From Trypanosoma brucei (lineage: Eukaryota), in NCBI GenBank assembly GCA_000002445.1, contig CP000071.1, positions 1,440,001-1,504,000 of the forward strand: a stretch of 64,000 bases of DNA, given 5' to 3'. Position 1 is the first letter of the stretch, and each line of letters starts with the position of its first letter. The position numbers were made by a program, and so were the translations under genes. The notes beneath the pieces are model-generated. The model searched no databases. It was not told the origin of the DNA and saw only the letters and a program-made list of their open reading frames with translations. Below are positions 4,193-48,988 of the stretch, piece by piece.

Positions 4193-4206
4193 CCCCCCCC
4201 CCCCCC
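4193..4206 (+). repeat. C14 homopolymer (G14 on minus strand) in strand-switch region; a second C13 run lies at 4415-4427
   Basis: Direct read. Confidence 0.9.

Positions 4207-7610: not shown

Positions 7611-7612
<2 letters not shown>

Positions 7613-7652
<40 letters not shown>
7613..7652. repeat. (TG)n dinucleotide microsatellite, about 20 units, inside the strand-switch region
   Basis: Direct read: tgtgtg... uninterrupted. The ORF 7614-8264, which starts MCVCVCV, is an artefact of this repeat. Confidence 0.95.
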
Positions 7653-30222: not shown

Positions 30223-33200
30223 ATGCTGCGGCATACGACGTCCATATTTGCCCCTACGTGTCGAACCGTCGTTTGCCGGACTTACAACCACCCGGTAGCG
30301 AGTAGGAGAAAGACCGGCAACAGACAAAAGAAGGGCGTTTGCGACAATGTTCGTGACATAATCGGCATGACCATCCCCGAGGCGCGGCTGCGTCGCGACC
30401 GTATTTCAGCAGCTTCCTTCGACCGTTGCATTGAGGAAAATGCTCGAAATATCATTGGCCTTGGCTCTAAAGAATCTCCTGGACTCGAGACCCGCTTCGG
30501 TGCTCGGTATGATCGTAGGGATGTGCGTTTTGTTGGTCGGGCCGATGACGTCCGGCGATTCACCGAGGAGGCGGCGAGGTCAAGCGCCGCCGGACATTGG
30601 CCAATGGGAGTGACATTCGTGCGGGGTGAGTTCGGTGCTGCATCCGGGGGCGATGGCCATCGGTTGAGCGCTGAACCAACGAGCCATGATTTGGGCCGCG
30701 CACCAATGGATGTGGCTAGCGAGGGAACTAATCCAATGCTGCGGCGTGTGTTGAGGCGGTGCAAAGAAGGGGTTTCCTCGTCACTGGCTGGAGTTCTTGC
30801 CGCTGCTGGCCCTGAGAAAGCACCGGCTGAAGGAACCACCTCTGAGATGAACCCTAGGAAGAACGTGGCACCGTCGACGGCTTCTACACGCCCACAAACG
30901 GCATCAGTAGTGAGTCCTGCGAGGCGGCGTGTCGAGAAGCGCTTACGGCGGCGATCAGCCGTGTTGTTGAGAGGCGGAGAATCGTTACACCCATGTTCCC
31001 TGCAGGGCGGATGCGGCTCACAGGGTGGCTCTTCGAACTGCGCGTTTGTTACACATCCATCTACCGCTTGCGTTCAGTGGTTGCGGCTGGGCCGTTGCGA
31101 GGAAGCGCGTCTATGTAGCTGCCCGTGGTGGCACCCTGCGGAGATGGAGGTACTGAAACCGGAGTTTCTTCACAGTTACTTCTTCGGCATTGCCGAAGGA
31201 GATGAGAGGGGGCTACGACCCTTGAGGGAAAGCTGTGCTGCGGTGGGGAGGCTCCTACAGATGTTTCTGGACATTATCGTTTCCACGATATTCGAAGCAT
31301 TGAGGATGGAGACGACAAATAACGAGGAGGTGGTGACGGTTGGGCGCGTTGAGGACCTTCTATCTCGTGCTGGTAAAGGGAAGGGTGGAAACTCCGCCTG
31401 CATTTGTAACCTAAAGGATGGTTTGCTCTCTGTGGAGCGGGAACTGTGCGTAAGTGCACTAATGGGTGATGATGAGGGGGTAACCTGCACGGAAAGTGCT
31501 GACGGCGAGACATCGGGGCCTCATTTCGATGGCGAGTCGACTTCTTTGCTCCGCAACATGGAACACTACCATAAGCTGCACGCCGATGCGGACAAAGAAG
31601 TGCGAAACCTCCTTGTTATATTTCGCGCGTACTTTACGATGTGTGATGAACGTGGGGGAAACAGTGGCCGCGTCATCGTGAGCGCTTCTCTTACTCAATG
31701 GCTGCTCAGGCACGCTGCGAGTTGTTGCAGTCAGGGAGAATGTTACTCGGCTGGACTGACCCCAATCAAGCTGTTTGAGGAGGCTTCAGTTGTATTATTG
31801 AAGGATAGACTTCATAGGTGTGGCATTGACATATGCGGCAGGAGTTGCAAGCAATCGAGCATCACACCTTCCGACCGTTCATCGCCGTTATTGTTGCTGC
31901 AACATGTCTCTTTATTGTCGAATATTGTAACGTTTGGTGCGAACGCAGATCAGGCGATGCTGACCGAGCCGGGGCAACAATCACTTTTGTATAGTGTCTT
32001 GCTTTGCCTTCAATCAGGTGGGGTGTCCTGTTGGCTTGGTGACTCTCCGCAGCAGCAGTACGTTAGTTGTTGGTTATTCATGCAATCTTTACTCTCGGTG
32101 GCTTCGGTATGCCTACTGCGGTTGGGCAGTCGAATCTTCTCGTTTGCACGCCCCGTGCTTGTGGAAGTCGGGCGGCGTTTGGCAAAGGATATTGAGGTCC
32201 AGTTCGAGGCGAAGTTGCTGCGGGCATCCGGATGGGCTCCGTGGACTGATGCACAGATGTTCGGTGAACAGCACCGGGCCATTTACACTGCGTCCGACTA
32301 CGCCCGGACGCACATGCCTGTCGTTGCTCGCGCATTCACAGCAGCAATGCTCAACATACTATTACTGAACACATTGAGAGCAGCGAACCGCGAGGTGAAT
32401 TTGTGTCGCAGTCCCGTTGCTGCCGTTATTTTCAGCGGGGAAAAGGCTGAGGAATACAAGGGCTGTGCAGTAAAAGGTGGATTAGACTCACCTATGGAGT
32501 GTGTTCAGCGCGAGTCGCAATTACGCGGTGGGCCCAGCGTGCGGCGCAGTATGCGTCCCTATGCACAAGAGGCCATGTCATTAATAGCTCTTTTGCATGA
32601 TGAAGGTACCCAAATGCTTGCTCGACGGCAGGCGCTCATGGAAGAGTTCTTGTGCAGGCGGAAAGATTTCGATGACTGTGGAGCAAACGAGCTCAACAAC
32701 CCCCAAAACCGAAGAAGAAGCTCCGGGGGCGTTATCTTGCCATCATTCCACGACGAAAAGATTCATGTTTTTGAGAAATTACTTCCACACGGGTCCATCT
32801 CCGTTTGTGGTGACGGTGTCGGATTGCTTCTTCGCGTGCTACTGGAGGGCGGGTCTGCATACGGGGCGTTGCGCCTCGCCGCATCTGCGGTTCACGTAGG
32901 AAGAGCGCTAAGGTTTGCGGCGCGCCAGCCCATGCCACACGTTCATCTAGGCGAAAAGGTAAAGCACAAACACATGCGAAACAGTAGAACAGGTCGCAAG
33001 TACACTGTTCGTGTCCGTGTCCCTGTTCTTCGTAGCACTGATCCCGACATGGAATGCCGAATGCACCGAAAGGGACAAAGTGGAGGAGCGCACCCCATTG
33101 CATTGTATTTGCGGCTCAACCAGCAAACAGTGGAAGAGATGGTCCGCCTCGCACTTCGCATGGGGGGCGCTGGAGAGCGTCTACTGAGCGGCGTAGTTGA

Positions 33201-34602
33201 CGACTGCGTACGGGGTTTACTCCTGGATTACGGGAAGTCACGCTGTTTACCTGCGGTAAAAGGCTCGGATGTGCACGATGATGGGGCGATTGCAGGAGAT
33301 TTAGGCGCACGCGAGCTGCAGGGAATCTTGTCCGTTGTAGTGGGTACCAACAGTAATTCGCAGCTTTTGTCCGTGGCTGATGAAGCCCAGCAGCGCGCCG
33401 TGGAGGGTTACCGTGTCCCTCCAACAGCATTGTTGGTCGAGCTCCTTGTGGCCCTTACACCTCAAGCGGGGCGCGGGGTGCACGAGCGGTGCACACGTTT
33501 ATGCGCAATGGACCCTCATCTAGTAAGCGAAAGAACACTCCTGGCGAAGCAGTGCCACACGGCAGGCGAAAGTTTTGCTAGGGCAAATGACGATGCTTCC
33601 GCGGCATGGTTGAGTTACCTCAACTCAGGAGTTGCTGTCGATTCAGGGGCGGTTAGTGTTTCGTTTCTCCGAAAGGAGGCTGAGCGACTACCTGTGGTTG
33701 ATAGTGTTGCTGCGTCGTTGAACAGGCCCCCGCTTCCTCGCAACGTAGAGGAGCTAAGAAGACAGCTCACGCAAACGGTTGATGCCGTCGGTTGTGCTCA
33801 GGACAGGCGACAAAACGAGGCAGCGTGGAGTTTGTCACGGGGGTTTGCCGTACGCGTGCAAGACCCAAACTCAATGCATGGAGTTTGGTGGGCTGTGATG
33901 TGTGGAGCAATTCTTGGTGCAAGCGACGACGCGCTGGCCGGCAAACAACGACCATGGGCACGGTTGCTTCTGCGCAACGCCTTCCACGTGGCCCAACAGT
34001 TCGCAGCACCACAGGATCGCGCCCGCTACGGCCAGGCAACGGTAAGGGCATTTATTCTCTCCGGCATATTTGAATTGACATCGACACCCCGTAGCCCTAC
34101 CGATGTTAGTTGTCGAAGGAAACACCTACCGTGGCAGCTCCCTGTAGTTCACGACCTCAACCTCTTTTTAGCTGCCCAGGTGCACCTCGCACAGCGGCTA
34201 CACAAACTGTATCCCAACAGTGTGATCACGAATGATTGTGGTATTAACAAACAACTGCAACTTTTTGGTCATCTAAAATTGTCGACAAAACTTGAAGACC
34301 ACCACATTGAGGCGACTGCGTGTTGGAGTCTACTTGAACCATTAACTGAACACAGCGAGTTAGCGATAACATGGCTGCAGGAATCACTGTTTCATACTCC
34401 TCAAGGACTGCTCGCATGGATCATCGCCTGCACTAACAACAATTGCAACCAAACGGCTTTTGTGATGGCCGCATGGGTGACACTTTTATGCCGCACTGAA
34501 AAGGTAGGTGGGACATTCAATAAACATGTCCAACAACATCTACGGTCCAAATGCACAAAAAAACAAGTGGAACAACTTCTGTTGCTTGATCACTGCAATT
34601 AA
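30223..34602 (+). CDS. Conserved hypothetical protein, 1459 aa
   Basis: ATG verified at 30223 (ttatgctgcgg = MLR). Long uninterrupted ORF in cluster orientation with no recognisable domain. An alternative downstream start, MTIPEARL (about aa 49), cannot be excluded. Confidence 0.6.
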   Translation: MLRHTTSIFAPTCRTVVCRTYNHPVASRRKTGNRQKKGVCDNVRDIIGMTIPEARLRRDRISAASFDRCIEENARNIIGLGSKESPGLETRFGARYDRRDVRFVGRADDVRRFTEEAARSSAAGHWPMGVTFVRGEFGAASGGDGHRLSAEPTSHDLGRAPMDVASEGTNPMLRRVLRRCKEGVSSSLAGVLAAAGPEKAPAEGTTSEMNPRKNVAPSTASTRPQTASVVSPARRRVEKRLRRRSAVLLRGGESLHPCSLQGGCGSQGGSSNCAFVTHPSTACVQWLRLGRCEEARLCSCPWWHPAEMEVLKPEFLHSYFFGIAEGDERGLRPLRESCAAVGRLLQMFLDIIVSTIFEALRMETTNNEEVVTVGRVEDLLSRAGKGKGGNSACICNLKDGLLSVERELCVSALMGDDEGVTCTESADGETSGPHFDGESTSLLRNMEHYHKLHADADKEVRNLLVIFRAYFTMCDERGGNSGRVIVSASLTQWLLRHAASCCSQGECYSAGLTPIKLFEEASVVLLKDRLHRCGIDICGRSCKQSSITPSDRSSPLLLLQHVSLLSNIVTFGANADQAMLTEPGQQSLLYSVLLCLQSGGVSCWLGDSPQQQYVSCWLFMQSLLSVASVCLLRLGSRIFSFARPVLVEVGRRLAKDIEVQFEAKLLRASGWAPWTDAQMFGEQHRAIYTASDYARTHMPVVARAFTAAMLNILLLNTLRAANREVNLCRSPVAAVIFSGEKAEEYKGCAVKGGLDSPMECVQRESQLRGGPSVRRSMRPYAQEAMSLIALLHDEGTQMLARRQALMEEFLCRRKDFDDCGANELNNPQNRRRSSGGVILPSFHDEKIHVFEKLLPHGSISVCGDGVGLLLRVLLEGGSAYGALRLAASAVHVGRALRFAARQPMPHVHLGEKVKHKHMRNSRTGRKYTVRVRVPVLRSTDPDMECRMHRKGQSGGAHPIALYLRLNQQTVEEMVRLALRMGGAGERLLSGVVDDCVRGLLLDYGKSRCLPAVKGSDVHDDGAIAGDLGARELQGILSVVVGTNSNSQLLSVADEAQQRAVEGYRVPPTALLVELLVALTPQAGRGVHERCTRLCAMDPHLVSERTLLAKQCHTAGESFARANDDASAAWLSYLNSGVAVDSGAVSVSFLRKEAERLPVVDSVAASLNRPPLPRNVEELRRQLTQTVDAVGCAQDRRQNEAAWSLSRGFAVRVQDPNSMHGVWWAVMCGAILGASDDALAGKQRPWARLLLRNAFHVAQQFAAPQDRARYGQATVRAFILSGIFELTSTPRSPTDVSCRRKHLPWQLPVVHDLNLFLAAQVHLAQRLHKLYPNSVITNDCGINKQLQLFGHLKLSTKLEDHHIEATACWSLLEPLTEHSELAITWLQESLFHTPQGLLAWIIACTNNNCNQTAFVMAAWVTLLCRTEKVGGTFNKHVQQHLRSKCTKKQVEQLLLLDHCN

Positions 34603-34817
34603 AATCCAAAGAAAGCGCGGACTTGCATAGGGCATCTACAAGGGAAAACGAAACGCATAAAAAAAATTAATTTTAAAAAAAAGAAATAACTTCCACAACC
34701 AAAATATAAAAAAAAACATGAATACCACCATATAAATCAATCACTTTTTTTCACCAACATATAGTATCAAATAATAAGAGAATTAACTTTGTAGATAAAG
34801 AAAGCAATAAAGCATCA

Positions 34818-36620
34818 ATGAGCGGAAAGGAAGTTGAAGGTGTTGTGAGTCCTGCGGACCAGCAGCAGCCAGCCGTCCCGGAGGTAACAGATATCACGCT
34901 GGAGGCCGCCCGCAAGCAGAAAATTCACAACCTGAAGTTGAAGACCGCCTGCCTTTCGAATGAGGAATATGTCCAGGACCTGCACGTATCCGAGTGGAGT
35001 GAGACGCAGAAGCAGAAGCTGCAGGCTGCACACGAGAAAGCGCATGAATTGCTTGCCTCAGTGGAGGGTGGGACGAAGTGGAGCCTGACAGAGGCGTATG
35101 ACATCAAGAAGCTGATGCGCGTCTGTGGTCTTGAGATGTCTGTGCGTGAACTGTACAAGCCGGAGGACAAGCCACAGTTCATGGAGATTGTTGCACTCAA
35201 GAAGACAATGAACGAACTGAAGCAACATCACAACAAGACTCGCACGGTGTCTTTCACCGGCATGATCGACAATGCCATCGCCAAACTGGAGAAAATCGAA
35301 GACGAACTGCGCCGGTCCCAGCTCGACGCTTCTGAGATGGCGCAAGTTCCTGTGGCTGCACTGAAGAATATTGAGGACACGATGAACGTGGCTGTTGTGC
35401 AGACGGCTCTTCTTGGGAACGAGGAGCAGATCAAAGCCCAACTTGCAGCCGTTGAGAAGGCGAACGAAATCCGTAATGTTGCCATTGCCGATGGTGAGAT
35501 GGCGATTGCTGAGGAACAGTATTACATTAAGGCGCAGCTGTTGGAGCACCTTGTGGAGCTTGTGGCCGACAAGTTTCGCATCATTGGGCAAACTGAGGAT
35601 GAGAATAAGAGCTTCAGTAAGATCCACGAGGTACAGAAGAAGTCATTTCAGGAATCTGCCTCAATCAAGGACGCGAAGCGCCGCCTTAAGCAACACTGCG
35701 AGGACGACCTACGTAACCTTCACGATGCCATCCAGAAAGCTGACTTGGAGGACGCCGAAGCCATGAAACGGTTCGCCACGCAGAAGGAGAAGTCGGAGCG
35801 GTTCATCCACGAGAACCTCGACAAACAGGACGAGGCATGGCGTCGCATTCAGGAACTGGAGCGCGTGTTGCAGCGCCTTGGGACGGAGCGTTTTGAAGAG
35901 GTGAAGCGCCGTATTGAGGAGAACGACCGCGAGGAGAAGCGTAAGGTGGAGTACCAACAGTTCCTCGATGTATGTGGCCAGCATAAAAAGCTGCTGGAAC
36001 TGTCTGTGTACAACTGCGACCTTGCGCTTCGCTGCATGGGTATGCTGGAGGAGATCGTAGCCGAGGGCTGCAGTGCCGTCAAGTCACGCCATGACAAGAC
36101 GAACGATGAGTTGTCTGACCTTCGGCTGCAGGTGCACCAGGAGTACCTGGAGGCATTCCGTCGCCTGTACAAAACTCTTGGCCAGCTTGTGTACAAGAAA
36201 GAAAAGCGCCTGGAGGAGATTGATCGCAACATCCGCACCACACACATTCAACTGGAGTTTGCCATTGAGACCTTTGACCCCAACGCGAAACTACACTCCG
36301 ACAAGAAGAAAGACCTATACAAACTTCGTGCGCAGGTGGAGGAAGAGTTGGAGATGCTGAAGGACAAGATGGCGCAGGCGTTGGAGATGTTTGGACCTAC
36401 TGAGGATGCGCTGAACCAGGCTGGTATCGATTTTGTTCACCCTGCTGAGGAGGTTGAGTCCGGCAACATGGATCGCCGCAGCAAGATGGTGGAGTACCGT
36501 GCACACCTGGCGAAGCAGGAGGAGGTGAAGATTGCCGCGGAGCGCGAGGAGCTGAAACGATCTAAGATGCTCCAGAGCCAGCAGTACCGCGGCCGCACGA
36601 TGCCGCAGATCACTCAGTAG
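34818..36620 (+). CDS. PFR2: Paraflagellar rod protein 2 (PFR2/PFR-A), copy 1
   Basis: The 600-aa product MSGKEVEGVVSPADQQQPAVPEV...QYRGRTMPQITQ is recognisable as the T. brucei 69-kDa major paraflagellar rod protein. ATG verified. Confidence 0.95.
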   Translation: MSGKEVEGVVSPADQQQPAVPEVTDITLEAARKQKIHNLKLKTACLSNEEYVQDLHVSEWSETQKQKLQAAHEKAHELLASVEGGTKWSLTEAYDIKKLMRVCGLEMSVRELYKPEDKPQFMEIVALKKTMNELKQHHNKTRTVSFTGMIDNAIAKLEKIEDELRRSQLDASEMAQVPVAALKNIEDTMNVAVVQTALLGNEEQIKAQLAAVEKANEIRNVAIADGEMAIAEEQYYIKAQLLEHLVELVADKFRIIGQTEDENKSFSKIHEVQKKSFQESASIKDAKRRLKQHCEDDLRNLHDAIQKADLEDAEAMKRFATQKEKSERFIHENLDKQDEAWRRIQELERVLQRLGTERFEEVKRRIEENDREEKRKVEYQQFLDVCGQHKKLLELSVYNCDLALRCMGMLEEIVAEGCSAVKSRHDKTNDELSDLRLQVHQEYLEAFRRLYKTLGQLVYKKEKRLEEIDRNIRTTHIQLEFAIETFDPNAKLHSDKKKDLYKLRAQVEEELEMLKDKMAQALEMFGPTEDALNQAGIDFVHPAEEVESGNMDRRSKMVEYRAHLAKQEEVKIAAEREELKRSKMLQSQQYRGRTMPQITQ

Positions 36621-36860
36621 CGCTGCGCTTAAATGTCTTTCATTATAATCAATGTATAACCTTTATGTAGTATTTCAATCTATGCCGCTGTGTACGTGCA
36701 CTGCGGTGCCTATCCTTCGGCATTAGAGAGTCACTGTTTGTGTAGATCGTAGCTGCATGTCTGACATCTGGTTCATTAGTGCCGTTTTGAGTCTGCACTG
36801 TTGTGCAACTTGATATGCATCACTGCACACCAACCGTGTGTTTCCTCCTTTGGGTGCACC

Positions 36861-36907
36861 CTTTAATCCTTGTCTTCTCCTTTTTTGTCTCTTTCCCCCT
36901 CGAAAAG
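36861..36907 (+). promoter_or_regulatory. Polypyrimidine tract plus AG dinucleotide: candidate trans-splicing acceptor region for the downstream PFR2 copy, repeated in every spacer at +2154n
   Basis: The tract ctttaatccttgtcttctccttttttgtctctttccccctc is followed by aaaag, about 65 nt upstream of the ATG. From established kinetoplastid mRNA processing, a polyY tract directs spliced-leader addition at a downstream AG and polyadenylation of the upstream mRNA. The exact acceptor AG is not determinable from sequence. Confidence 0.5.
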
Positions 36908-36971
36908 GTGTCAAACTACTGCCGCATAAACTACGGTTATCCCAAATTTAAGAGAAAGCAATAAAGCATCA

Positions 36972-38774
36972 ATGAGCGGAAAGGAAGTTGAAGGTGTTGT
37001 GAGTCCTGCGGACCAGCAGCAGCCAGCCGTCCCGGAGGTAACAGATATCACGCTGGAGGCCGCCCGCAAGCAGAAAATTCACAACCTGAAGTTGAAGACC
37101 GCCTGCCTTTCGAATGAGGAATATGTCCAGGACCTGCACGTATCCGAGTGGAGTGAGACGCAGAAGCAGAAGCTGCAGGCTGCACACGAGAAAGCGCATG
37201 AATTGCTTGCCTCAGTGGAGGGTGGGACGAAGTGGAGCCTGACAGAGGCGTATGACATCAAGAAGCTGATGCGCGTCTGTGGTCTTGAGATGTCTGTGCG
37301 TGAACTGTACAAGCCGGAGGACAAGCCACAGTTCATGGAGATTGTTGCACTCAAGAAGACAATGAACGAACTGAAGCAACATCACAACAAGACTCGCACG
37401 GTGTCTTTCACCGGCATGATCGACAATGCCATCGCCAAACTGGAGAAAATCGAAGACGAACTGCGCCGGTCCCAGCTCGACGCTTCTGAGATGGCGCAAG
37501 TTCCTGTGGCTGCACTGAAGAATATTGAGGACACGATGAACGTGGCTGTTGTGCAGACGGCTCTTCTTGGGAACGAGGAGCAGATCAAAGCCCAACTTGC
37601 AGCCGTTGAGAAGGCGAACGAAATCCGTAATGTTGCCATTGCCGATGGTGAGATGGCGATTGCTGAGGAACAGTATTACATTAAGGCGCAGCTGTTGGAG
37701 CACCTTGTGGAGCTTGTGGCCGACAAGTTTCGCATCATTGGGCAAACTGAGGATGAGAATAAGAGCTTCAGTAAGATCCACGAGGTACAGAAGAAGTCAT
37801 TTCAGGAATCTGCCTCAATCAAGGACGCGAAGCGCCGCCTTAAGCAACACTGCGAGGACGACCTACGTAACCTTCACGATGCCATCCAGAAAGCTGACTT
37901 GGAGGACGCCGAAGCCATGAAACGGTTCGCCACGCAGAAGGAGAAGTCGGAGCGGTTCATCCACGAGAACCTCGACAAACAGGACGAGGCATGGCGTCGC
38001 ATTCAGGAACTGGAGCGCGTGTTGCAGCGCCTTGGGACGGAGCGTTTTGAAGAGGTGAAGCGCCGTATTGAGGAGAACGACCGCGAGGAGAAGCGTAAGG
38101 TGGAGTACCAACAGTTCCTCGATGTATGTGGCCAGCATAAAAAGCTGCTGGAACTGTCTGTGTACAACTGCGACCTTGCGCTTCGCTGCATGGGTATGCT
38201 GGAGGAGATCGTAGCCGAGGGCTGCAGTGCCGTCAAGTCACGCCATGACAAGACGAACGATGAGTTGTCTGACCTTCGGCTGCAGGTGCACCAGGAGTAC
38301 CTGGAGGCATTCCGTCGCCTGTACAAAACTCTTGGCCAGCTTGTGTACAAGAAAGAAAAGCGCCTGGAGGAGATTGATCGCAACATCCGCACCACACACA
38401 TTCAACTGGAGTTTGCCATTGAGACCTTTGACCCCAACGCGAAACTACACTCCGACAAGAAGAAAGACCTATACAAACTTCGTGCGCAGGTGGAGGAAGA
38501 GTTGGAGATGCTGAAGGACAAGATGGCGCAGGCGTTGGAGATGTTTGGACCTACTGAGGATGCGCTGAACCAGGCTGGTATCGATTTTGTTCACCCTGCT
38601 GAGGAGGTTGAGTCCGGCAACATGGATCGCCGCAGCAAGATGGTGGAGTACCGTGCACACCTGGCGAAGCAGGAGGAGGTGAAGATTGCCGCGGAGCGCG
38701 AGGAGCTGAAACGATCTAAGATGCTCCAGAGCCAGCAGTACCGCGGCCGCACGATGCCGCAGATCACTCAGTAG
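36972..38774 (+). CDS. PFR2: Paraflagellar rod protein 2, copy 2
   Basis: Translation identical to copy 1. Confidence 0.95.
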   Translation: MSGKEVEGVVSPADQQQPAVPEVTDITLEAARKQKIHNLKLKTACLSNEEYVQDLHVSEWSETQKQKLQAAHEKAHELLASVEGGTKWSLTEAYDIKKLMRVCGLEMSVRELYKPEDKPQFMEIVALKKTMNELKQHHNKTRTVSFTGMIDNAIAKLEKIEDELRRSQLDASEMAQVPVAALKNIEDTMNVAVVQTALLGNEEQIKAQLAAVEKANEIRNVAIADGEMAIAEEQYYIKAQLLEHLVELVADKFRIIGQTEDENKSFSKIHEVQKKSFQESASIKDAKRRLKQHCEDDLRNLHDAIQKADLEDAEAMKRFATQKEKSERFIHENLDKQDEAWRRIQELERVLQRLGTERFEEVKRRIEENDREEKRKVEYQQFLDVCGQHKKLLELSVYNCDLALRCMGMLEEIVAEGCSAVKSRHDKTNDELSDLRLQVHQEYLEAFRRLYKTLGQLVYKKEKRLEEIDRNIRTTHIQLEFAIETFDPNAKLHSDKKKDLYKLRAQVEEELEMLKDKMAQALEMFGPTEDALNQAGIDFVHPAEEVESGNMDRRSKMVEYRAHLAKQEEVKIAAEREELKRSKMLQSQQYRGRTMPQITQ

Positions 38775-39125
38775 CGCTGCGCTTAAGTGTCTTTCATTAT
38801 AATCAATGTATAACCTTTATGTAGTATTTCAATCTATGCCGCTGTGTACGTGCACTGCGGTGCCTATCCTTCGGCATTAGAGAGTCACTGTTTGTGTAGA
38901 TCGTAGCTGCATGTCTGACATCTGGTTCATTAGTGCCGTTTTGAGTCTGCACTGTTGTGCAACTTGATATGCATCACTGCACACCAACCGTGTGTTTCCT
39001 CCTTTGGGTGCACCCTTTAATCCTTGTCTTCTCCTTTTTTGTCTCTTTCCCCCTCGAAAAGGTGTCAAACTACTGCCGCATAAACTACGGTTATCCCAAA
39101 TTTAAGAGAAAGCAATAAAGCATCA

Positions 39126-40928
39126 ATGAGCGGAAAGGAAGTTGAAGGTGTTGTGAGTCCTGCGGACCAGCAGCAGCCAGCCGTCCCGGAGGTAACAGAT
39201 ATCACGCTGGAGGCCGCCCGCAAGCAGAAAATTCACAACCTGAAGTTGAAGACCGCCTGCCTTTCGAATGAGGAATATGTCCAGGACCTGCACGTATCCG
39301 AGTGGAGTGAGACGCAGAAGCAGAAGCTGCAGGCTGCACACGAGAAAGCGCATGAATTGCTTGCCTCAGTGGAGGGTGGGACGAAGTGGAGCCTGACAGA
39401 GGCGTATGACATCAAGAAGCTGATGCGCGTCTGTGGTCTTGAGATGTCTGTGCGTGAACTGTACAAGCCGGAGGACAAGCCACAGTTCATGGAGATTGTT
39501 GCACTCAAGAAGACAATGAACGAACTGAAGCAACATCACAACAAGACTCGCACGGTGTCTTTCACCGGCATGATCGACAATGCCATCGCCAAACTGGAGA
39601 AAATCGAAGACGAACTGCGCCGGTCCCAGCTCGACGCTTCTGAGATGGCGCAAGTTCCTGTGGCTGCACTGAAGAATATTGAGGACACGATGAACGTGGC
39701 TGTTGTGCAGACGGCTCTTCTTGGGAACGAGGAGCAGATCAAAGCCCAACTTGCAGCCGTTGAGAAGGCGAACGAAATCCGTAATGTTGCCATTGCCGAT
39801 GGTGAGATGGCGATTGCTGAGGAACAGTATTACATTAAGGCGCAGCTGTTGGAGCACCTTGTGGAGCTTGTGGCCGACAAGTTTCGCATCATTGGGCAAA
39901 CTGAGGATGAGAATAAGAGCTTCAGTAAGATCCACGAGGTACAGAAGAAGTCATTTCAGGAATCTGCCTCAATCAAGGACGCGAAGCGCCGCCTTAAGCA
40001 ACACTGCGAGGACGACCTACGTAACCTTCACGATGCCATCCAGAAAGCTGACTTGGAGGACGCCGAAGCCATGAAACGGTTCGCCACGCAGAAGGAGAAG
40101 TCGGAGCGGTTCATCCACGAGAACCTCGACAAACAGGACGAGGCATGGCGTCGCATTCAGGAACTGGAGCGCGTGTTGCAGCGCCTTGGGACGGAGCGTT
40201 TTGAAGAGGTGAAGCGCCGTATTGAGGAGAACGACCGCGAGGAGAAGCGTAAGGTGGAGTACCAACAGTTCCTCGATGTATGTGGCCAGCATAAAAAGCT
40301 GCTGGAACTGTCTGTGTACAACTGCGACCTTGCGCTTCGCTGCATGGGTATGCTGGAGGAGATCGTAGCCGAGGGCTGCAGTGCCGTCAAGTCACGCCAT
40401 GACAAGACGAACGATGAGTTGTCTGACCTTCGGCTGCAGGTGCACCAGGAGTACCTGGAGGCATTCCGTCGCCTGTACAAAACTCTTGGCCAGCTTGTGT
40501 ACAAGAAAGAAAAGCGCCTGGAGGAGATTGATCGCAACATCCGCACCACACACATTCAACTGGAGTTTGCCATTGAGACCTTTGACCCCAACGCGAAACT
40601 ACACTCCGACAAGAAGAAAGACCTATACAAACTTCGTGCGCAGGTGGAGGAAGAGTTGGAGATGCTGAAGGACAAGATGGCGCAGGCGTTGGAGATGTTT
40701 GGACCTACTGAGGATGCGCTGAACCAGGCTGGTATCGATTTTGTTCACCCTGCTGAGGAGGTTGAGTCCGGCAACATGGATCGCCGCAGCAAGATGGTGG
40801 AGTACCGTGCACACCTGGCGAAGCAGGAGGAGGTGAAGATTGCCGCGGAGCGCGAGGAGCTGAAACGATCTAAGATGCTCCAGAGCCAGCAGTACCGCGG
40901 CCGCACGATGCCGCAGATCACTCAGTAG
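39126..40928 (+). CDS. PFR2: Paraflagellar rod protein 2, copy 3
   Basis: Translation identical to copy 1. Confidence 0.95.
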   Translation: MSGKEVEGVVSPADQQQPAVPEVTDITLEAARKQKIHNLKLKTACLSNEEYVQDLHVSEWSETQKQKLQAAHEKAHELLASVEGGTKWSLTEAYDIKKLMRVCGLEMSVRELYKPEDKPQFMEIVALKKTMNELKQHHNKTRTVSFTGMIDNAIAKLEKIEDELRRSQLDASEMAQVPVAALKNIEDTMNVAVVQTALLGNEEQIKAQLAAVEKANEIRNVAIADGEMAIAEEQYYIKAQLLEHLVELVADKFRIIGQTEDENKSFSKIHEVQKKSFQESASIKDAKRRLKQHCEDDLRNLHDAIQKADLEDAEAMKRFATQKEKSERFIHENLDKQDEAWRRIQELERVLQRLGTERFEEVKRRIEENDREEKRKVEYQQFLDVCGQHKKLLELSVYNCDLALRCMGMLEEIVAEGCSAVKSRHDKTNDELSDLRLQVHQEYLEAFRRLYKTLGQLVYKKEKRLEEIDRNIRTTHIQLEFAIETFDPNAKLHSDKKKDLYKLRAQVEEELEMLKDKMAQALEMFGPTEDALNQAGIDFVHPAEEVESGNMDRRSKMVEYRAHLAKQEEVKIAAEREELKRSKMLQSQQYRGRTMPQITQ

Positions 40929-41279
40929 CGCTGCGCTTAAGTGTCTTTCATTATAATCAATGTATAACCTTTATGTAGTATTTCAATCTATGCCGCTGTG
41001 TACGTGCACTGCGGTGCCTATCCTTCGGCATTAGAGAGTCACTGTTTGTGTAGATCGTAGCTGCATGTCTGACATCTGGTTCATTAGTGCCGTTTTGAGT
41101 CTGCACTGTTGTGCAACTTGATATGCATCACTGCACACCAACCGTGTGTTTCCTCCTTTGGGTGCACCCTTTAATCCTTGTCTTCTCCTTTTTTGTCTCT
41201 TTCCCCCTCGAAAAGGTGTCAAACTACTGCCGCATAAACTACGGTTATCCCAAATTTAAGAGAAAGCAATAAAGCATCA

Positions 41280-43082
41280 ATGAGCGGAAAGGAAGTTGAA
41301 GGTGTTGTGAGTCCTGCGGACCAGCAGCAGCCAGCCGTCCCGGAGGTAACAGATATCACGCTGGAGGCCGCCCGCAAGCAGAAAATTCACAACCTGAAGT
41401 TGAAGACCGCCTGCCTTTCGAATGAGGAATATGTCCAGGACCTGCACGTATCCGAGTGGAGTGAGACGCAGAAGCAGAAGCTGCAGGCTGCACACGAGAA
41501 AGCGCATGAATTGCTTGCCTCAGTGGAGGGTGGGACGAAGTGGAGCCTGACAGAGGCGTATGACATCAAGAAGCTGATGCGCGTCTGTGGTCTTGAGATG
41601 TCTGTGCGTGAACTGTACAAGCCGGAGGACAAGCCACAGTTCATGGAGATTGTTGCACTCAAGAAGACAATGAACGAACTGAAGCAACATCACAACAAGA
41701 CTCGCACGGTGTCTTTCACCGGCATGATCGACAATGCCATCGCCAAACTGGAGAAAATCGAAGACGAACTGCGCCGGTCCCAGCTCGACGCTTCTGAGAT
41801 GGCGCAAGTTCCTGTGGCTGCACTGAAGAATATTGAGGACACGATGAACGTGGCTGTTGTGCAGACGGCTCTTCTTGGGAACGAGGAGCAGATCAAAGCC
41901 CAACTTGCAGCCGTTGAGAAGGCGAACGAAATCCGTAATGTTGCCATTGCCGATGGTGAGATGGCGATTGCTGAGGAACAGTATTACATTAAGGCGCAGC
42001 TGTTGGAGCACCTTGTGGAGCTTGTGGCCGACAAGTTTCGCATCATTGGGCAAACTGAGGATGAGAATAAGAGCTTCAGTAAGATCCACGAGGTACAGAA
42101 GAAGTCATTTCAGGAATCTGCCTCAATCAAGGACGCGAAGCGCCGCCTTAAGCAACACTGCGAGGACGACCTACGTAACCTTCACGATGCCATCCAGAAA
42201 GCTGACTTGGAGGACGCCGAAGCCATGAAACGGTTCGCCACGCAGAAGGAGAAGTCGGAGCGGTTCATCCACGAGAACCTCGACAAACAGGACGAGGCAT
42301 GGCGTCGCATTCAGGAACTGGAGCGCGTGTTGCAGCGCCTTGGGACGGAGCGTTTTGAAGAGGTGAAGCGCCGTATTGAGGAGAACGACCGCGAGGAGAA
42401 GCGTAAGGTGGAGTACCAACAGTTCCTCGATGTATGTGGCCAGCATAAAAAGCTGCTGGAACTGTCTGTGTACAACTGCGACCTTGCGCTTCGCTGCATG
42501 GGTATGCTGGAGGAGATCGTAGCCGAGGGCTGCAGTGCCGTCAAGTCACGCCATGACAAGACGAACGATGAGTTGTCTGACCTTCGGCTGCAGGTGCACC
42601 AGGAGTACCTGGAGGCATTCCGTCGCCTGTACAAAACTCTTGGCCAGCTTGTGTACAAGAAAGAAAAGCGCCTGGAGGAGATTGATCGCAACATCCGCAC
42701 CACACACATTCAACTGGAGTTTGCCATTGAGACCTTTGACCCCAACGCGAAACTACACTCCGACAAGAAGAAAGACCTATACAAACTTCGTGCGCAGGTG
42801 GAGGAAGAGTTGGAGATGCTGAAGGACAAGATGGCGCAGGCGTTGGAGATGTTTGGACCTACTGAGGATGCGCTGAACCAGGCTGGTATCGATTTTGTTC
42901 ACCCTGCTGAGGAGGTTGAGTCCGGCAACATGGATCGCCGCAGCAAGATGGTGGAGTACCGTGCACACCTGGCGAAGCAGGAGGAGGTGAAGATTGCCGC
43001 GGAGCGCGAGGAGCTGAAACGATCTAAGATGCTCCAGAGCCAGCAGTACCGCGGCCGCACGATGCCGCAGATCACTCAGTAG
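41280..43082 (+). CDS. PFR2: Paraflagellar rod protein 2, copy 4
   Basis: Translation identical to copy 1. Confidence 0.95.
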   Translation: MSGKEVEGVVSPADQQQPAVPEVTDITLEAARKQKIHNLKLKTACLSNEEYVQDLHVSEWSETQKQKLQAAHEKAHELLASVEGGTKWSLTEAYDIKKLMRVCGLEMSVRELYKPEDKPQFMEIVALKKTMNELKQHHNKTRTVSFTGMIDNAIAKLEKIEDELRRSQLDASEMAQVPVAALKNIEDTMNVAVVQTALLGNEEQIKAQLAAVEKANEIRNVAIADGEMAIAEEQYYIKAQLLEHLVELVADKFRIIGQTEDENKSFSKIHEVQKKSFQESASIKDAKRRLKQHCEDDLRNLHDAIQKADLEDAEAMKRFATQKEKSERFIHENLDKQDEAWRRIQELERVLQRLGTERFEEVKRRIEENDREEKRKVEYQQFLDVCGQHKKLLELSVYNCDLALRCMGMLEEIVAEGCSAVKSRHDKTNDELSDLRLQVHQEYLEAFRRLYKTLGQLVYKKEKRLEEIDRNIRTTHIQLEFAIETFDPNAKLHSDKKKDLYKLRAQVEEELEMLKDKMAQALEMFGPTEDALNQAGIDFVHPAEEVESGNMDRRSKMVEYRAHLAKQEEVKIAAEREELKRSKMLQSQQYRGRTMPQITQ

Positions 43083-43433
43083 CGCTGCGCTTAAATGTCT
43101 TTCATTATAATCAATGTATAACCTTTATGTAGTATTTCAATCTATGCCGCTGTGTACGTGCACTGCGGTGCCTATCCTTCGGCATTAGAGAGTCACTGTT
43201 TGTGTAGATCGTAGCTGCATGTCTGACATCTGGTTCATTAGTGCCGTTTTGAGTCTGCACTGTTGTGCAACTTGATATGCATCACTGCACACCAACCGTG
43301 TGTTTCCTCCTTTGGGTGCACCCTTTAATCCTTGTCTTCTCCTTTTTTGTCTCTTTCCCCCTCGAAAAGGTGTCAAACTACTGCCGCATAAACTACGGTT
43401 ATCCCAAATTTAAGAGAAAGCAATAAAGCATCA

Positions 43434-45236
43434 ATGAGCGGAAAGGAAGTTGAAGGTGTTGTGAGTCCTGCGGACCAGCAGCAGCCAGCCGTCCCGGAGG
43501 TAACAGATATCACGCTGGAGGCCGCCCGCAAGCAGAAAATTCACAACCTGAAGTTGAAGACCGCCTGCCTTTCGAATGAGGAATATGTCCAGGACCTGCA
43601 CGTATCCGAGTGGAGTGAGACGCAGAAGCAGAAGCTGCAGGCTGCACACGAGAAAGCGCATGAATTGCTTGCCTCAGTGGAGGGTGGGACGAAGTGGAGC
43701 CTGACAGAGGCGTATGACATCAAGAAGCTGATGCGCGTCTGTGGTCTTGAGATGTCTGTGCGTGAACTGTACAAGCCGGAGGACAAGCCACAGTTCATGG
43801 AGATTGTTGCACTCAAGAAGACAATGAACGAACTGAAGCAACATCACAACAAGACTCGCACGGTGTCTTTCACCGGCATGATCGACAATGCCATCGCCAA
43901 ACTGGAGAAAATCGAAGACGAACTGCGCCGGTCCCAGCTCGACGCTTCTGAGATGGCGCAAGTTCCTGTGGCTGCACTGAAGAATATTGAGGACACGATG
44001 AACGTGGCTGTTGTGCAGACGGCTCTTCTTGGGAACGAGGAGCAGATCAAAGCCCAACTTGCAGCCGTTGAGAAGGCGAACGAAATCCGTAATGTTGCCA
44101 TTGCCGATGGTGAGATGGCGATTGCTGAGGAACAGTATTACATTAAGGCGCAGCTGTTGGAGCACCTTGTGGAGCTTGTGGCCGACAAGTTTCGCATCAT
44201 TGGGCAAACTGAGGATGAGAATAAGAGCTTCAGTAAGATCCACGAGGTACAGAAGAAGTCATTTCAGGAATCTGCCTCAATCAAGGACGCGAAGCGCCGC
44301 CTTAAGCAACACTGCGAGGACGACCTACGTAACCTTCACGATGCCATCCAGAAAGCTGACTTGGAGGACGCCGAAGCCATGAAACGGTTCGCCACGCAGA
44401 AGGAGAAGTCGGAGCGGTTCATCCACGAGAACCTCGACAAACAGGACGAGGCATGGCGTCGCATTCAGGAACTGGAGCGCGTGTTGCAGCGCCTTGGGAC
44501 GGAGCGTTTTGAAGAGGTGAAGCGCCGTATTGAGGAGAACGACCGCGAGGAGAAGCGTAAGGTGGAGTACCAACAGTTCCTCGATGTATGTGGCCAGCAT
44601 AAAAAGCTGCTGGAACTGTCTGTGTACAACTGCGACCTTGCGCTTCGCTGCATGGGTATGCTGGAGGAGATCGTAGCCGAGGGCTGCAGTGCCGTCAAGT
44701 CACGCCATGACAAGACGAACGATGAGTTGTCTGACCTTCGGCTGCAGGTGCACCAGGAGTACCTGGAGGCATTCCGTCGCCTGTACAAAACTCTTGGCCA
44801 GCTTGTGTACAAGAAAGAAAAGCGCCTGGAGGAGATTGATCGCAACATCCGCACCACACACATTCAACTGGAGTTTGCCATTGAGACCTTTGACCCCAAC
44901 GCGAAACTACACTCCGACAAGAAGAAAGACCTATACAAACTTCGTGCGCAGGTGGAGGAAGAGTTGGAGATGCTGAAGGACAAGATGGCGCAGGCGTTGG
45001 AGATGTTTGGACCTACTGAGGATGCGCTGAACCAGGCTGGTATCGATTTTGTTCACCCTGCTGAGGAGGTTGAGTCCGGCAACATGGATCGCCGCAGCAA
45101 GATGGTGGAGTACCGTGCACACCTGGCGAAGCAGGAGGAGGTGAAGATTGCCGCGGAGCGCGAGGAGCTGAAACGATCTAAGATGCTCCAGAGCCAGCAG
45201 TACCGCGGCCGCACGATGCCGCAGATCACTCAGTAG
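43434..45236 (+). CDS. PFR2: Paraflagellar rod protein 2, copy 5
   Basis: Translation identical to copy 1; the downstream flank differs from the inter-copy spacer. Confidence 0.95.
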   Translation: MSGKEVEGVVSPADQQQPAVPEVTDITLEAARKQKIHNLKLKTACLSNEEYVQDLHVSEWSETQKQKLQAAHEKAHELLASVEGGTKWSLTEAYDIKKLMRVCGLEMSVRELYKPEDKPQFMEIVALKKTMNELKQHHNKTRTVSFTGMIDNAIAKLEKIEDELRRSQLDASEMAQVPVAALKNIEDTMNVAVVQTALLGNEEQIKAQLAAVEKANEIRNVAIADGEMAIAEEQYYIKAQLLEHLVELVADKFRIIGQTEDENKSFSKIHEVQKKSFQESASIKDAKRRLKQHCEDDLRNLHDAIQKADLEDAEAMKRFATQKEKSERFIHENLDKQDEAWRRIQELERVLQRLGTERFEEVKRRIEENDREEKRKVEYQQFLDVCGQHKKLLELSVYNCDLALRCMGMLEEIVAEGCSAVKSRHDKTNDELSDLRLQVHQEYLEAFRRLYKTLGQLVYKKEKRLEEIDRNIRTTHIQLEFAIETFDPNAKLHSDKKKDLYKLRAQVEEELEMLKDKMAQALEMFGPTEDALNQAGIDFVHPAEEVESGNMDRRSKMVEYRAHLAKQEEVKIAAEREELKRSKMLQSQQYRGRTMPQITQ

Positions 45237-46246
45237 GATTGTGTACTGTAATTGTATTTTTTGGGTTTTTTTTGAAAGTGGTAGTAGTATTTTAGAGTTG
45301 CTACTTACTTATGAGTTTGATATGTTTGTTTTTATGTATAATTTTTTTTTTGAGAAACTGATGTTTATATGTATGTGTATCTTCTTATTTGCGGTTAGAT
45401 TAGACGATTTTTAGTGTATTTTTATTTGGCTGGGGTTTATTTGGCTGCTATTTGTTGTAGGATGCGCCGTGCTGACGCTTCTTGCTCTTGTATGTCGCCG
45501 AGTTATGCTGATTGTTGCTCTCTCTATATTTCTTTTGTGCGGTGGTGTTGTTGAAAAATTTTGCTGCTAATATTGTTGTCATGTATTTTGTTGTTGTTAC
45601 TTGTCTGTGAGTGGTTTCTTTCTTTCTTTTTTCCACTGTGTTTTGTAATAGTGTCTTACTTTAGCTTAGGATTATAGGTATGGAGGGATGTGTTATTGCC
45701 TGATCAAATATTTCTGTTGGAGTTGTTAGGTTACTGTTGCACGTGACTTCCGTATATATCCGTGTTGGCTTTTTCTTTTTGAGTTAAAGTTCTTTTGTTT
45801 TGGTATAATCGTGTGTGTGGGATCTGCTGCATGTAATGTCCGGATGGTCGAGCCGACGTGGTACCTTTTTTGGGCTTTATCGTGTGGTGGTGAATGTTAC
45901 TTCTTTTGAGTTTGTTAGTGGCATTACCGCTGTTGTAAGCACAATTAAGTGTAGTGTATGAGTATATGCCCACGATCTGGGCTAAAGGCTTGTAGTTGAA
46001 CCGAGCCCGCCGATGTCCCATTTGTGGAGGAGTGGTGTATAACGTGAGCAACGTTAGAGGTTGGTTTTTACCTCATGGAGGTATTGTGTGTTGTACATTT
46101 CTTTTAAGTTGTATTACTGGTGTTCAACCGTATCTGCTCTTCTGTTTTGTTGGACGTATGCTTTGCGTTAACCACTTGTTATTAACGCCCGTGGGTATAT
46201 CCAACGCTGCTGAAATAATCATTAGTGCATTAGCTAACCGTTGACC

Positions 46247-47578
46247 ATGGAAATGGATAGGTTGACACGCCGGCAGGCGGACCGGATTGAGTACGTCATG
46301 CGGGATCTCTTACGCGATTTGCAACTCATAGCATTTCTTCCCGTAGACTTGTACCCCTGGACGCGTAGAAGCTGCCTTGAAGCGGCGCGGAACCTTTTGG
46401 CGGAGGCAAGCATGAATCAGGGTATGAATGGGGCGGCAGCGCAGATTTACGGAGAGGATGACAACTCAACATATGTTGCTCAGCTTATATATGGTCTTGC
46501 TGAGCGGTATGGTGACGCAACTGACGTTGATAATAATGAGTTACTTTTGCAAATGACTGAGTTCGCAGAATTAGAAAGGGAAATGCTAGACACCGCCACG
46601 TCGGTGGGCGCAGTGGATGAATACGATATTAACCGACACCACAAACTTTTTCGTGCGGTGTTGGACACCCTGCAGCAAGAGGGCTACACAGAGCTTGTTG
46701 CTCACTCGCTGAAGTGGGGAAGCGGTGACGACTCAGCTGTAGCACAACCACCGGGTGCTTATCCCATGGAGCCTAGCGTTTTCAATCGTTTAGTCGATCC
46801 TGGAATGTTGTCGCTGCAGCGCACCGTCGAGTGCCTATGTGAGCTGTTGGTTGTTCGCAACACCTCTACTGTAACTGAGGACATACACAACTATAAGATA
46901 TTGCATGAGGCGGTTAACAAAGAGAAGAGTTCATCCGCCGATGTGAAGGCTCTGAAACGTGAATACCATGAGATAAGGGAGGCACGTCGCACAGAAGTGG
47001 CTGCATTGCAGGCGGAGGTGCGCCAGTTAGAGGATGAGATCGAGTACACTCGTAGTGTGTTAGAACTCGAGCTGTCGGCTTTCGGCGAGGCAAATGCCAA
47101 ACTGGAAGAGGAACGCCAAGTGGAGGAGGAGGAGCGTATCAACGCACTGAAGGAGGAAGCGGAGCACTTAAAACAGAAACTCGATGGACTTATTGCGGCG
47201 AATCAAGGGGAGGCCGCAACGCTTCGCACTCAGCGAGCAAAGAAGGAGGCGGCTGTGAGCGCCGCAATAACGGAGTACGACACTCAAATGGCCACTTTGC
47301 ATGCTGCATCTGTGGCGCTCAACAAGGAGACGGAGGAAGACACTGAGGCCATAGTTGCATTGGATGGTGAGTTGGGGGCACTATGTACCGAAAGGAATGA
47401 ATATGAACTAGAGAAATATATTGAAGAGATGCGCGAGAAGCATTATGAGCGCATGCACGAGCAGACGACGAGGTATGCCTCCACCATCCAGGCTTGCTTC
47501 CGCGCGTACCTCACGCGGGTGAACTTCGAAAGGGGACTGGCTAATTCTAAGCGAAAAAGGAAGCGGAAGAACAAATAG
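46247..47578 (+). CDS. Hypothetical coiled-coil protein (~443 aa) with C-terminal IQ calmodulin-binding-like motif
   Basis: Track ORF starts with TTG at 46241; the first ATG is at 46247 (MEMDRLTRRQ). The C-terminal half is heptad-rich and charged (EVRQLEDEIEYTRSVLELELSAF.. KLEEERQVEEEERINALKEEAEHLKQKL). The IQ-like segment is IQACFRAYLTRVNFERG, followed by a basic tail. Confidence 0.6.
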   Translation: MEMDRLTRRQADRIEYVMRDLLRDLQLIAFLPVDLYPWTRRSCLEAARNLLAEASMNQGMNGAAAQIYGEDDNSTYVAQLIYGLAERYGDATDVDNNELLLQMTEFAELEREMLDTATSVGAVDEYDINRHHKLFRAVLDTLQQEGYTELVAHSLKWGSGDDSAVAQPPGAYPMEPSVFNRLVDPGMLSLQRTVECLCELLVVRNTSTVTEDIHNYKILHEAVNKEKSSSADVKALKREYHEIREARRTEVAALQAEVRQLEDEIEYTRSVLELELSAFGEANAKLEEERQVEEEERINALKEEAEHLKQKLDGLIAANQGEAATLRTQRAKKEAAVSAAITEYDTQMATLHAASVALNKETEEDTEAIVALDGELGALCTERNEYELEKYIEEMREKHYERMHEQTTRYASTIQACFRAYLTRVNFERGLANSKRKRKRKNK

Positions 47579-48023
47579 TGGGTGGTACAGTTGGAAGCTG
47601 ACAAGGAGGCGATTATGCATAAATATACATGTACTTCTTTTTTGAATTTGCCTTCTCTCCACCCCTTTCCCCTGACATTCCGTCGGCTGTCACATTTCAT
47701 GAAGTGAAAACAGTGTGCTGCCTTAGAGAGAAATTTGTGTAAGAGTATTGTTGGGGACGCGGTATGTATTCTAGCTGATCAACCCCACATGTCTTTGCAT
47801 TTGCCTTTTTACCTTTTTCCTTTCTCAGTACAAAAAAAAATGTATGTCGCTATTCATGTGTTTCACTGTGACGGGAAAGTTGCCTCTTACAGACAAAATT
47901 CCCGTCATCTTGGAATAGTACAACCATTCTGTGTATACCCCTTCTCTATTTTTTCCCCCCTGCACGCTAGCGTGAGTGCGTACAGTTTGGGAGCTAAGCT
48001 TTGACTCCTCTGCAACTGGGTTA

Positions 48024-48038
48024 GGGGGGGGGGGGGGG
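48024..48038 (+). repeat. G15 homopolymer in intergenic region. Similar G runs at 60681-60690 (G10) and 62132-62149 (G9 then TGGGG)
   Basis: Direct read; all lie between plus-strand genes on the sense strand. Confidence 0.9.
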
Positions 48039-48406
48039 AAGATGCGAATTCCTCTGCTGTCCGGGCGGAGGTATGCCCTTGTCCGCATTTTGAAGCTGCA
48101 TTCCTCTCCTTTTCTTTTGTTGAATTCTGGGTGTTTCAACGGGACATACAAGGGGATAGAGAGGGGAGCAGGGGTGAAGAGGGGGGAGGGGAGAGCGCCT
48201 GATAGTGTGTATATAAATATAATTCAGATATGTTTGAGATTCACAACCAAACTTATCAGTAACACATACGAGTAGACTGCGCTCCATCAATCATTGTGCG
48301 TTTCTTCTTTTGGTTCTTGGAGTAATCGAAGTAGGAATTAAAGAAGCTAAGGTTACAGGTAATTATTCTTGCGCTTGCCGTCGCTGAGAGAGAGTAGTAG
48401 TGCCTC

Positions 48407-48988
48407 ATGTCCCAACAGCGGCAGGTTGCTGCCAAATTGGGTGAAGTGGCCTTCGATAGTGGCGAGAAGGCAAGCGCTGAATTTTTCGCCATTACGTACG
48501 GCGCGCTTGTCCAGCAGATGATTACGGACCTTCCCCAAGCCGATGATGTAGAGGTTGTCAATCAGCAACTGGACACGATGGGCCGGCGGATTGGCTCGCG
48601 ACTGGTGGAAGAATACAGCGCCCGGAGCGGCGCCCCCGCCTGTCGCACGTTTGCGCAAGCGGCAGATGCTGTTGCAATTGTAGGAATAAAAATGTTTCTT
48701 AATGTTAACGCAACGGTACAACCTGCGGAGGAAAGTGGGGGTGACACATTTACGTTAACTTTTGCAGATAACCCGCTTGCGCTCTTTGTGGAACTGCCTG
48801 AGGGTCCTGTGCGTCAGCGCTTGTGGTATTCGAATGTTATTTGTGGTGTTATTGTCGGTGCGCTTTCTATGGTAGGGTTTATTGCAGAAGCGACGTTTGT
48901 AAGGGACACCCTGCGCGGTGATGCAACGAATGAGATACTACTGTCCTTCAAGGGGAGGGAGAAGGAAACCTTTAAGGTTGAACAATAG
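48407..48988 (+). CDS. BET3: TRAPP complex subunit 3 (Bet3 family)
   Basis: ATG verified at 48407. The 193-aa product aligns along its whole length to human TRAPPC3: EFFAITYGALVQQM vs ELFTLTYGALVTQL, VNQQLDTMGRRIGSRLVEEY vs VNKQLDKMGFNIGVRLIEDF, NPLALFVELP vs NPLVDFVELP, YSNVICGVIVGALSMV vs YSNLLCGVLRGALEMV, FVRDTLRGDATNEI vs FVQDTLKGDGVTEI. Confidence 0.85.
   Translation: MSQQRQVAAKLGEVAFDSGEKASAEFFAITYGALVQQMITDLPQADDVEVVNQQLDTMGRRIGSRLVEEYSARSGAPACRTFAQAADAVAIVGIKMFLNVNATVQPAEESGGDTFTLTFADNPLALFVELPEGPVRQRLWYSNVICGVIVGALSMVGFIAEATFVRDTLRGDATNEILLSFKGREKETFKVEQ

Follow-up and report, generated by a model that had tools for sequence, protein, structure and literature searches.

Array structure

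The DNA analyzed here is a 64,000-nt stretch of the Trypanosoma brucei genome (contig CP000071.1 of assembly GCA_000002445.1, positions 1,440,001 to 1,504,000 of the forward strand), hereafter the window; coordinates count from its first letter. Our subject is a tandem array of genes that encode PFR2, a protein of the paraflagellar rod. The array lies on the + strand at 34799..45236 and comprises four full units of 2154 nt and a fifth unit that ends at its own stop codon, with a direct-repeat spacing of 2154. The open reading frame (ORF) listing gives five head-to-tail coding sequences (CDSs) of 1803 nt, with a period of exactly 2154 nt. Copy 1 (600 aa, Pfam PF05149) is at 34818..36620, copy 2 at 36972..38774, copy 3 at 39126..40928, copy 4 at 41280..43082 and copy 5 at 43434..45236. 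A preliminary description of this DNA, made from the letters and their ORFs, had reported a five-copy array beginning at 34798; the five 600-aa ORFs (starting at 34818, 36972, 39126, 41280 and 43434) bear out the count, and the repeat homology begins one base later, at 34799.

Four spacers of 351 nt separate the CDSs, each carrying the shared 3' untranslated region (UTR), the processing signals and the shared 5'UTR. Spacer 1 (36621..36971, + strand) and spacer 4 (43083..43433, + strand) have A at their position 13, and spacer 2 (38775..39125, + strand) and spacer 3 (40929..41279, + strand) have G.

Direct comparison found no nucleotide difference among the five CDSs, so copies 2 to 5 match copy 1 base for base. 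The preliminary description had noted that all five translate identically, and the identity proves stronger at the nucleotide level. Among all four spacers a single site varies. Compared in pairs, the four full units differ on average by 0.0003 per site, and with units of 2154 nt at 100% identity chance is not an issue.

The repeat has sharp edges. Homology begins 19 nt before the first ATG and ends at the stop codon of copy 5, 0 nt beyond it. Copy 1 has its own 5' flank upstream of -19, part of a unique A-rich region (34603..34798, + strand), and copy 5 is followed by a unique T-rich region (45237..46246, + strand) that comprises the 3'UTR specific to this copy and the intergenic sequence up to the following gene. 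Neither the 5' flank of copy 1 nor the 3' flank of copy 5 (next 351 nt compared) aligns to the spacer. The array had been called 'perfectly homogenised', which is accurate for the five CDSs and four internal spacers and does not extend to these two flanks.

Tandem Repeats Finder, run on the window, did not detect the array because its longest period of 500 falls short of the 2154-nt unit. Rfam and tRNA scans of the whole 64-kb window gave no matches, so no small-RNA gene is hidden in the PFR2 spacers. Every PFR2 copy also contains an antisense ORF of 189 aa with a GTG start (35058-35627 and at +2154 steps), which we rejected as a by-product of composition without independent support.

Protein and locus identity

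The protein matches Pfam PF05149 (Flagellar_rod) with 356.7 bits (cut-off 23.4; E=1.3e-106) over profile positions 5-287 of 287. Its sequence is identical to that of the Trypanozoon 69 kDa paraflagellar rod protein (UniProt PFR1_TRYBB; consecutive accessions AAZ13261-AAZ13264). Its best matches are named PFR2 in T. cruzi (90% identity) and PFR2C in L. major (84% identity). Identity is 92% to the T. vivax protein and ~70% to diplonemid and euglenid proteins. By these matches the protein is the ortholog of the characterized PFR2, not of PFR1. Its placement in the paraflagellar rod, and the need for it there, are taken from the literature (PMC2813431, PMC549545).

Upstream of the array lies a gene of 1459 aa that matches AAZ13260/XP_847326 of T. 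brucei brucei TREU927 exactly. Together, the accession matches of PFR2 and of this gene place the locus on TREU927 chromosome 8. It is the annotated PFR2 array of that chromosome, Tb927.8.4970 to Tb927.8.5010, formerly PFR-A. The published identifiers Tb927.8.4970, Tb927.8.4990 and Tb927.8.5010 have each been applied to PFR2/PFR; PMC2813431 uses Tb927.8.4970 for PFR2.

Divergence within and between arrays

T. vivax, T. cruzi and L. major have PFR2 arrays at the syntenic position. Per 1.8 kb, the CDSs of one array differ by 0-1 nt in T. vivax (at least six copies), 0-6 nt in T. cruzi (six copies) and 0-1 nt in L. major (three copies). Between species, the synonymous divergence (dS) of PFR2 is 0.45-1.2 and third-position differences reach 25-42%; against T. 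vivax and T. cruzi dS is 1.1, with synonymous sites saturated. Differences of 0-6 nt within arrays against a dS of 0.45-1.2 between species are the signature of concerted evolution. The gene conversion or unequal crossing-over proposed in the preliminary description is supported by this contrast, and Jackson (2007; PMC1855330) came to the same conclusion.

The arrays share their surroundings: T. brucei and L. major have the 1459/1465-aa gene upstream and TRAPP downstream. The repeat boundaries differ, lying at -19/0 nt in T. brucei, at -70 nt in T. vivax and at least at -135/+6 nt in L. major; in T. cruzi the 5' boundary is exact at -17 nt, and 3' similarity runs on for ~66 nt. The six-copy T. 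cruzi array (GCA_003177095.1, 7776-20704 of the retrieved stretch) holds 16 substitution sites, a few indel columns and four distinct proteins. In the T. vivax assembly (GCA_021307395.1), the syntenic copies, at least six, lie on SOPI01000504.1. A second T. vivax contig of 31.5 kb, SOPI01000300.1, consists almost wholly of PFR2 units, several of them frameshifted, which look like long-read errors or pseudogenized units.

Within Trypanozoon the 2154-nt unit of the window shows 0 differences from copy 2 of T. b. gambiense DAL972 and from the T. b. equiperdum copies; copy 1 of DAL972 has one synonymous change, G1764A. Between the window and the other subspecies, flanking CDSs differ by 0.12-0.76%, intergenic regions by 0.6-1.0% and the immediate array flanks by 0.5-1%. 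Over genes and intergenic regions together, strain mismatches in the array flanks are mostly 0.1-1.0%, and near zero for T. equiperdum OVI upstream of the array. The Poisson probability of complete identity of the unit between subspecies is 2e-5 at the mean rates of its neighbours and 3-7e-3 if the rates of its most conserved neighbours are used instead. As a separate observation, across the T. b. brucei, T. b. gambiense and T. b. equiperdum assemblies the diversity of the unit (CDS plus spacer) lies below what its neighbours would predict.

The array fits the 'invariant' class of Jackson (2007). CDS and spacer divergence is near zero, paralogues are closer to each other than to positional homologues, and the third-position G+C content (GC3) is raised (0.697, vs 0.43-0.60 in ten neighbouring ORFs). 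That paper lists the array itself, as Tb73 (PFR2), as "invariant" with Ds=Dn=0, credits this to unequal crossing-over and reports an elevated GC3 of 0.676 for the class.

Copy number among assemblies

The same locus has been assembled with different numbers of copies. PFR2 is present five times in the window (TREU927), four times in the long-read (PacBio) T. b. equiperdum assembly GCA_003543875.1, twice in T. b. gambiense DAL972 and once in T. equiperdum OVI. Four copies were reported for strain 427 (Rusconi, 2005; PMC549545), and Schlaeppi (1989) gives two.

Some of this spread is an assembly effect. In the OVI scaffold a CDS is followed by 332 nt of spacer and a gap of 10 N, after which come the final 31 nt of a CDS and the unique 3' flank; this is a plain assembly collapse. 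Assembled copy counts can be arbitrary. Variation between individuals, as expected under unequal crossing-over, may contribute to the 5/4/2/1 series, of which at least the one-copy case is a collapse. The warning in the preliminary description that assemblies can miscount the copies was well founded, given these Trypanozoon counts and a one-copy scaffold with its 10-N gap inside a unit.

OVI also relates differently to the window on the two sides of its array. It has 1 mismatch in the 7.5 kb upstream (27255-34798) and 0.31% mismatches over the 9.7 kb downstream (45237-54900), so the haplotype relationship switches at the collapsed array and its N gap. Either the haplotype changed in scaffolding or the breakpoint reflects real recombination.

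The variable spacer site

The variable base is at position 13 after the stop codon: A at 36633, G at 38787, G at 40941 and A at 43095. The single A/G site, the spacer length of 351 nt and the order A,G,G,A all agree with the preliminary description; only its position of 9 needs correction, being the start of the 9-mer quoted there. None of the three other assemblies compared (DAL972, T. b. equiperdum IVM-t1 and T. equiperdum OVI) has G at +13; every one of their spacers reads A. With A in all three, the G is derived and private to the TREU927 assembly. It creates an AflII site (CTTAAG, at 38782 in spacer 2 and 40936 in spacer 3). Together with the AflII site inside each CDS, this is predicted from the sequence to replace a fragment of 2154 nt with fragments of 943 + 1211 nt.

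The order of the variants carries no statistical weight, since two Gs among four spacers are adjacent in three of six arrangements (probability 0.5). We therefore rejected A,G,G,A as an informative pattern. Nor can one site delimit a conversion tract. The site is useful for phasing and counting units, and the suggested use of the pattern as a marker of conversion-tract history does not stand. The most economical history for the G is a single mutation that was then copied locally once, by duplication of one unit or by a short conversion. Such local spread is typical: in the T. cruzi array, six of the seven variants common to at least two units sit in contiguous units, including a site reading A,G,G,A,A,A (P ~0.012 if sites are independent, which they are not fully).

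The two adjacent G spacers may record one recent event in the TREU927 lineage, in which unequal sister-chromatid or homologue exchange turned a four-copy A,G,A array into the five-copy A,G,G,A array; we put this forward tentatively. If true, the one-unit expansion would give concerted evolution a step that is dated and open to direct observation, in an array whose unit is otherwise unchanged across Trypanozoon. A search of Logan/short-read contigs returned none with the exact PFR2 protein.

Predicted RNA processing signals

In kinetoplastids a polypyrimidine tract followed by AG is the spliced-leader acceptor and also positions polyadenylation of the upstream gene. Spacer 1 has a 35-nt polypyrimidine tract (36867-36901) with the first downstream AG at 36906 (together 36867..36907, + strand), and the same arrangement recurs at +2154 steps. 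By analogy with established mRNA processing this is expected to be the trans-splice acceptor of copies 2-5. The predicted acceptor lies ~64 nt before the ATG, which gives these copies a predicted 5'UTR of ~64 nt. With the acceptor there, 64 nt before the ATG of the next copy, the +13 A/G site falls in the 3'UTR common to copies 1-4.

Copy 1 differs from copies 2-5 in having no polypyrimidine tract of at least 12 nt upstream of its CDS, in the whole 215-nt intergenic stretch (34603-34817, A-rich). Trans-splicing of copy 1 may be less efficient, given this tract-less region compared with the 35-nt tract of the internal spacers.

The shared 3'UTR contains the motif ATGTATA at +32 (36652..36658, + strand; also at 38806, 40960 and 43114). 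Copy 5, whose 3' flank is unrelated, has an independent ATGTATA there at +98 (45334..45340, + strand). Of the six + strand occurrences of the motif in the window, five follow closely on a PFR2 stop codon. The heptamer matches both the flagellar-regulon motif AUGUAU*U and the Leishmania paraflagellar rod regulatory element (PRE) AUGUAUAGUU (Archer et al., 2011; PMC3069104).

Genomic context

ERO1 (1902-3230, - strand, assigned by Pfam) is the sole Pfam-supported gene on the - strand. Between it and the first + strand ORF lies a divergent strand-switch region (3231-7613), with a change of sign in GC skew near 6 kb and a rise in G+C content to 0.526 at 4-6 kb. Transcription of the PFR2-containing unit probably starts in this region. 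All long ORFs between 7.6 and 60.5 kb are on the + strand, and the Pfam-supported genes on that strand, from ~23.5 kb on, are kinesin, PFR2 x5, TRAPP, EMG1 and OTU. The window fits the layout of a kinetoplastid polycistron, a same-strand gene cluster downstream of a strand switch, and the PFR2 array sits ~27 kb into this + strand polycistronic transcription unit.

Apart from the array, the kinesin ORF (PF00225; 23533-27903) holds an in-frame tandem repeat of 84 nt (28 aa) in its coiled-coil tail, with ~21 copies that are 95-99% alike (25501-27480). These repeats vary in register and number from one assembly to another, and in that of T. b. equiperdum a gap of 100 N lies at this place.

Interpretation and alternatives

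We hold with high confidence that the window carries five identical genes for the 69-kDa PFR2 protein in a + strand polycistron, that their identity is maintained by concerted evolution, and that the A-to-G change at +13 is a young private variant. On established knowledge and the papers cited here, RNA polymerase II would read through the whole array. Each spacer would direct polyadenylation of the copy upstream and spliced-leader trans-splicing of the copy downstream, at its 35-nt tract and AG. Three mRNA types would result: copy 1 with a unique 5'UTR, copies 2-4 with shared UTRs and copy 5 with a unique 3'UTR. With read-through and processing at every spacer, PFR2 mRNA output would scale with copy number and not with a gene promoter. 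Dosage by amplification within a polycistron, as the preliminary description had it, fits the + strand gene context and the findings of Rusconi (2005; PMC549545). Repeated unequal crossing-over and gene conversion between misaligned units would keep the copies identical, and the +13 G would have arisen once and then been copied to the neighbouring unit by a single one-unit duplication or short conversion.

Several points weigh against this reading. The count of five and the placement of the two Gs come solely from the assembly consensus, and units of 2154 nt exceed the length of a Sanger read. Unique sequence is ~4 kb away from the interior spacers, whose order could therefore have been fixed by elimination during assembly, and the identity of copies in a consensus assembly could partly reflect the pooling of reads. 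The copy number is four, not five, both in strain 427 and in the long-read T. b. equiperdum assembly. The PFR2 splice and polyadenylation sites are predictions. Finally, independent amplification lineage by lineage would give an equal within-versus-between pattern.

The strongest alternative is that assembly produced the A,G,G,A order and perhaps also the count of five: the true array would have four units with spacers A,G,A, or reads from two homologues, one all-A and one G-bearing, would have been merged into a mosaic five-unit consensus. We regard this as possible, if clearly the less probable account. It draws on the spread of assembled copy numbers at this one locus, on the visible collapse of the OVI scaffold at its 10-N gap and on the four copies in strain 427 and in the PacBio T. 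b. equiperdum assembly. In addition, both flank-anchored spacers have A and both unanchorable interior spacers have G, as placement by elimination would yield. Against it, the G is present in two units and so is no single random base-call error. Strain differences in copy number are expected under unequal crossing-over, and five copies against four need not be an error. We also take the TREU927 chromosomes to have been finished with manual curation, which we count against an assembly product.

Identity might instead be kept mainly by purifying selection on a highly expressed, codon-optimized gene with compact UTRs, rather than by recombination. The conservation of PFR2 as far as diplonemids and euglenids, its high GC3 and the absence of differences in the unit between subspecies, at the low Poisson probabilities given above, all speak for selection. 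We nevertheless think it unlikely to be the main cause. With dS at 1.1 against T. vivax and T. cruzi, synonymous sites are free to change, and the 351-nt spacers are as invariant as the CDSs, the same ground on which Jackson (2007; PMC1855330) rejects selection. Nor can selection explain why paralogues group by species. Acting on a codon-biased, highly expressed gene with compact UTRs, it probably works in addition to homogenization, but the saturation of synonymous sites between species means that it cannot take its place.

Least probable, and in our view very improbable, is that the copies are identical through very recent, independent amplification of a single gene in each lineage, without ongoing homogenization of an old array: this predicts identity within species and divergence between them equally well, and suits the differing repeat boundaries of T. 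brucei, T. cruzi, T. vivax and L. major, but arrays stand at the same syntenic position in four of four species examined, Jackson (2007; PMC1855330) found the array in all six genomes compared and argued that independent expansion per species is unparsimonious, and the unit is identical across Trypanozoon lineages whose flanks are 0.5-1% apart, so that the array predates the split of these lineages and yet has accumulated no differences.

Implications

PFR2 is a common quantitative PCR reference and flagellar marker. For read mapping, for the design of CRISPR or RNA interference experiments and for quantification of PFR2, the five annotated genes are indistinguishable and copy numbers taken from assemblies are unreliable. 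PFR2 transcripts or units can be told apart only by the terminal UTRs and the +13 A/G (AflII) site. More broadly, the array is a textbook example both of concerted evolution and of how amplification sets gene dosage in an organism that lacks gene-specific promoters.

Most of this is already known: the invariance of the array, its mechanism, the architecture of its terminal UTRs and the dosage rationale have been published for the PFR2 locus itself. The +13 A/G (AflII) variant is the only detail not found in the literature consulted on the PFR2 array, and it is at most a marker for counting and phasing.

Comparison with known systems

In the PFR2 locus of strain 427 the intergenic UTRs are identical, the first copy has a 5'UTR of its own, the last copy has a 3'UTR of its own, and three mRNA types are described (Rusconi, 2005; PMC549545). 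The window array has the same identical intergenic regions and unique terminal 5' and 3' UTRs. Schlaeppi (1989) likewise describes identical tandem genes, with the mini-exon on both mRNAs.

The other invariant arrays of Jackson (2007), namely tubulin, histones H3/H4, PFR1, cysteine peptidase and S-adenosylmethionine (SAM) synthetase, together with PFR2 (Tb73), resemble the window array in having Ds=Dn=0, identical non-coding sequence and species-monophyletic copies. Terminal UTRs in that study are generally identical to the internal spacers but curtailed. In the window array the curtailment is extreme, leaving 19 nt on the 5' side and 0 nt on the 3' side.

The Leishmania PFR2A/B/C array is syntenic with that of T. 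brucei and, like it, consists of near-identical units, three in number. Its spacers are longer, at ~1570 nt compared with 351 nt in the window. Read-through transcription with post-transcriptional control would be common to both arrays, and an AUGUAUA-type motif is present in both types of T. brucei PFR2 3'UTR. The function of the PRE in the 3'UTR was shown in L. mexicana amastigotes (Mishra, 2003; Holzer, 2008; as relayed in PMC2813431 and PMC3069104); the T. brucei motif, in comparison, is known here as a sequence match.

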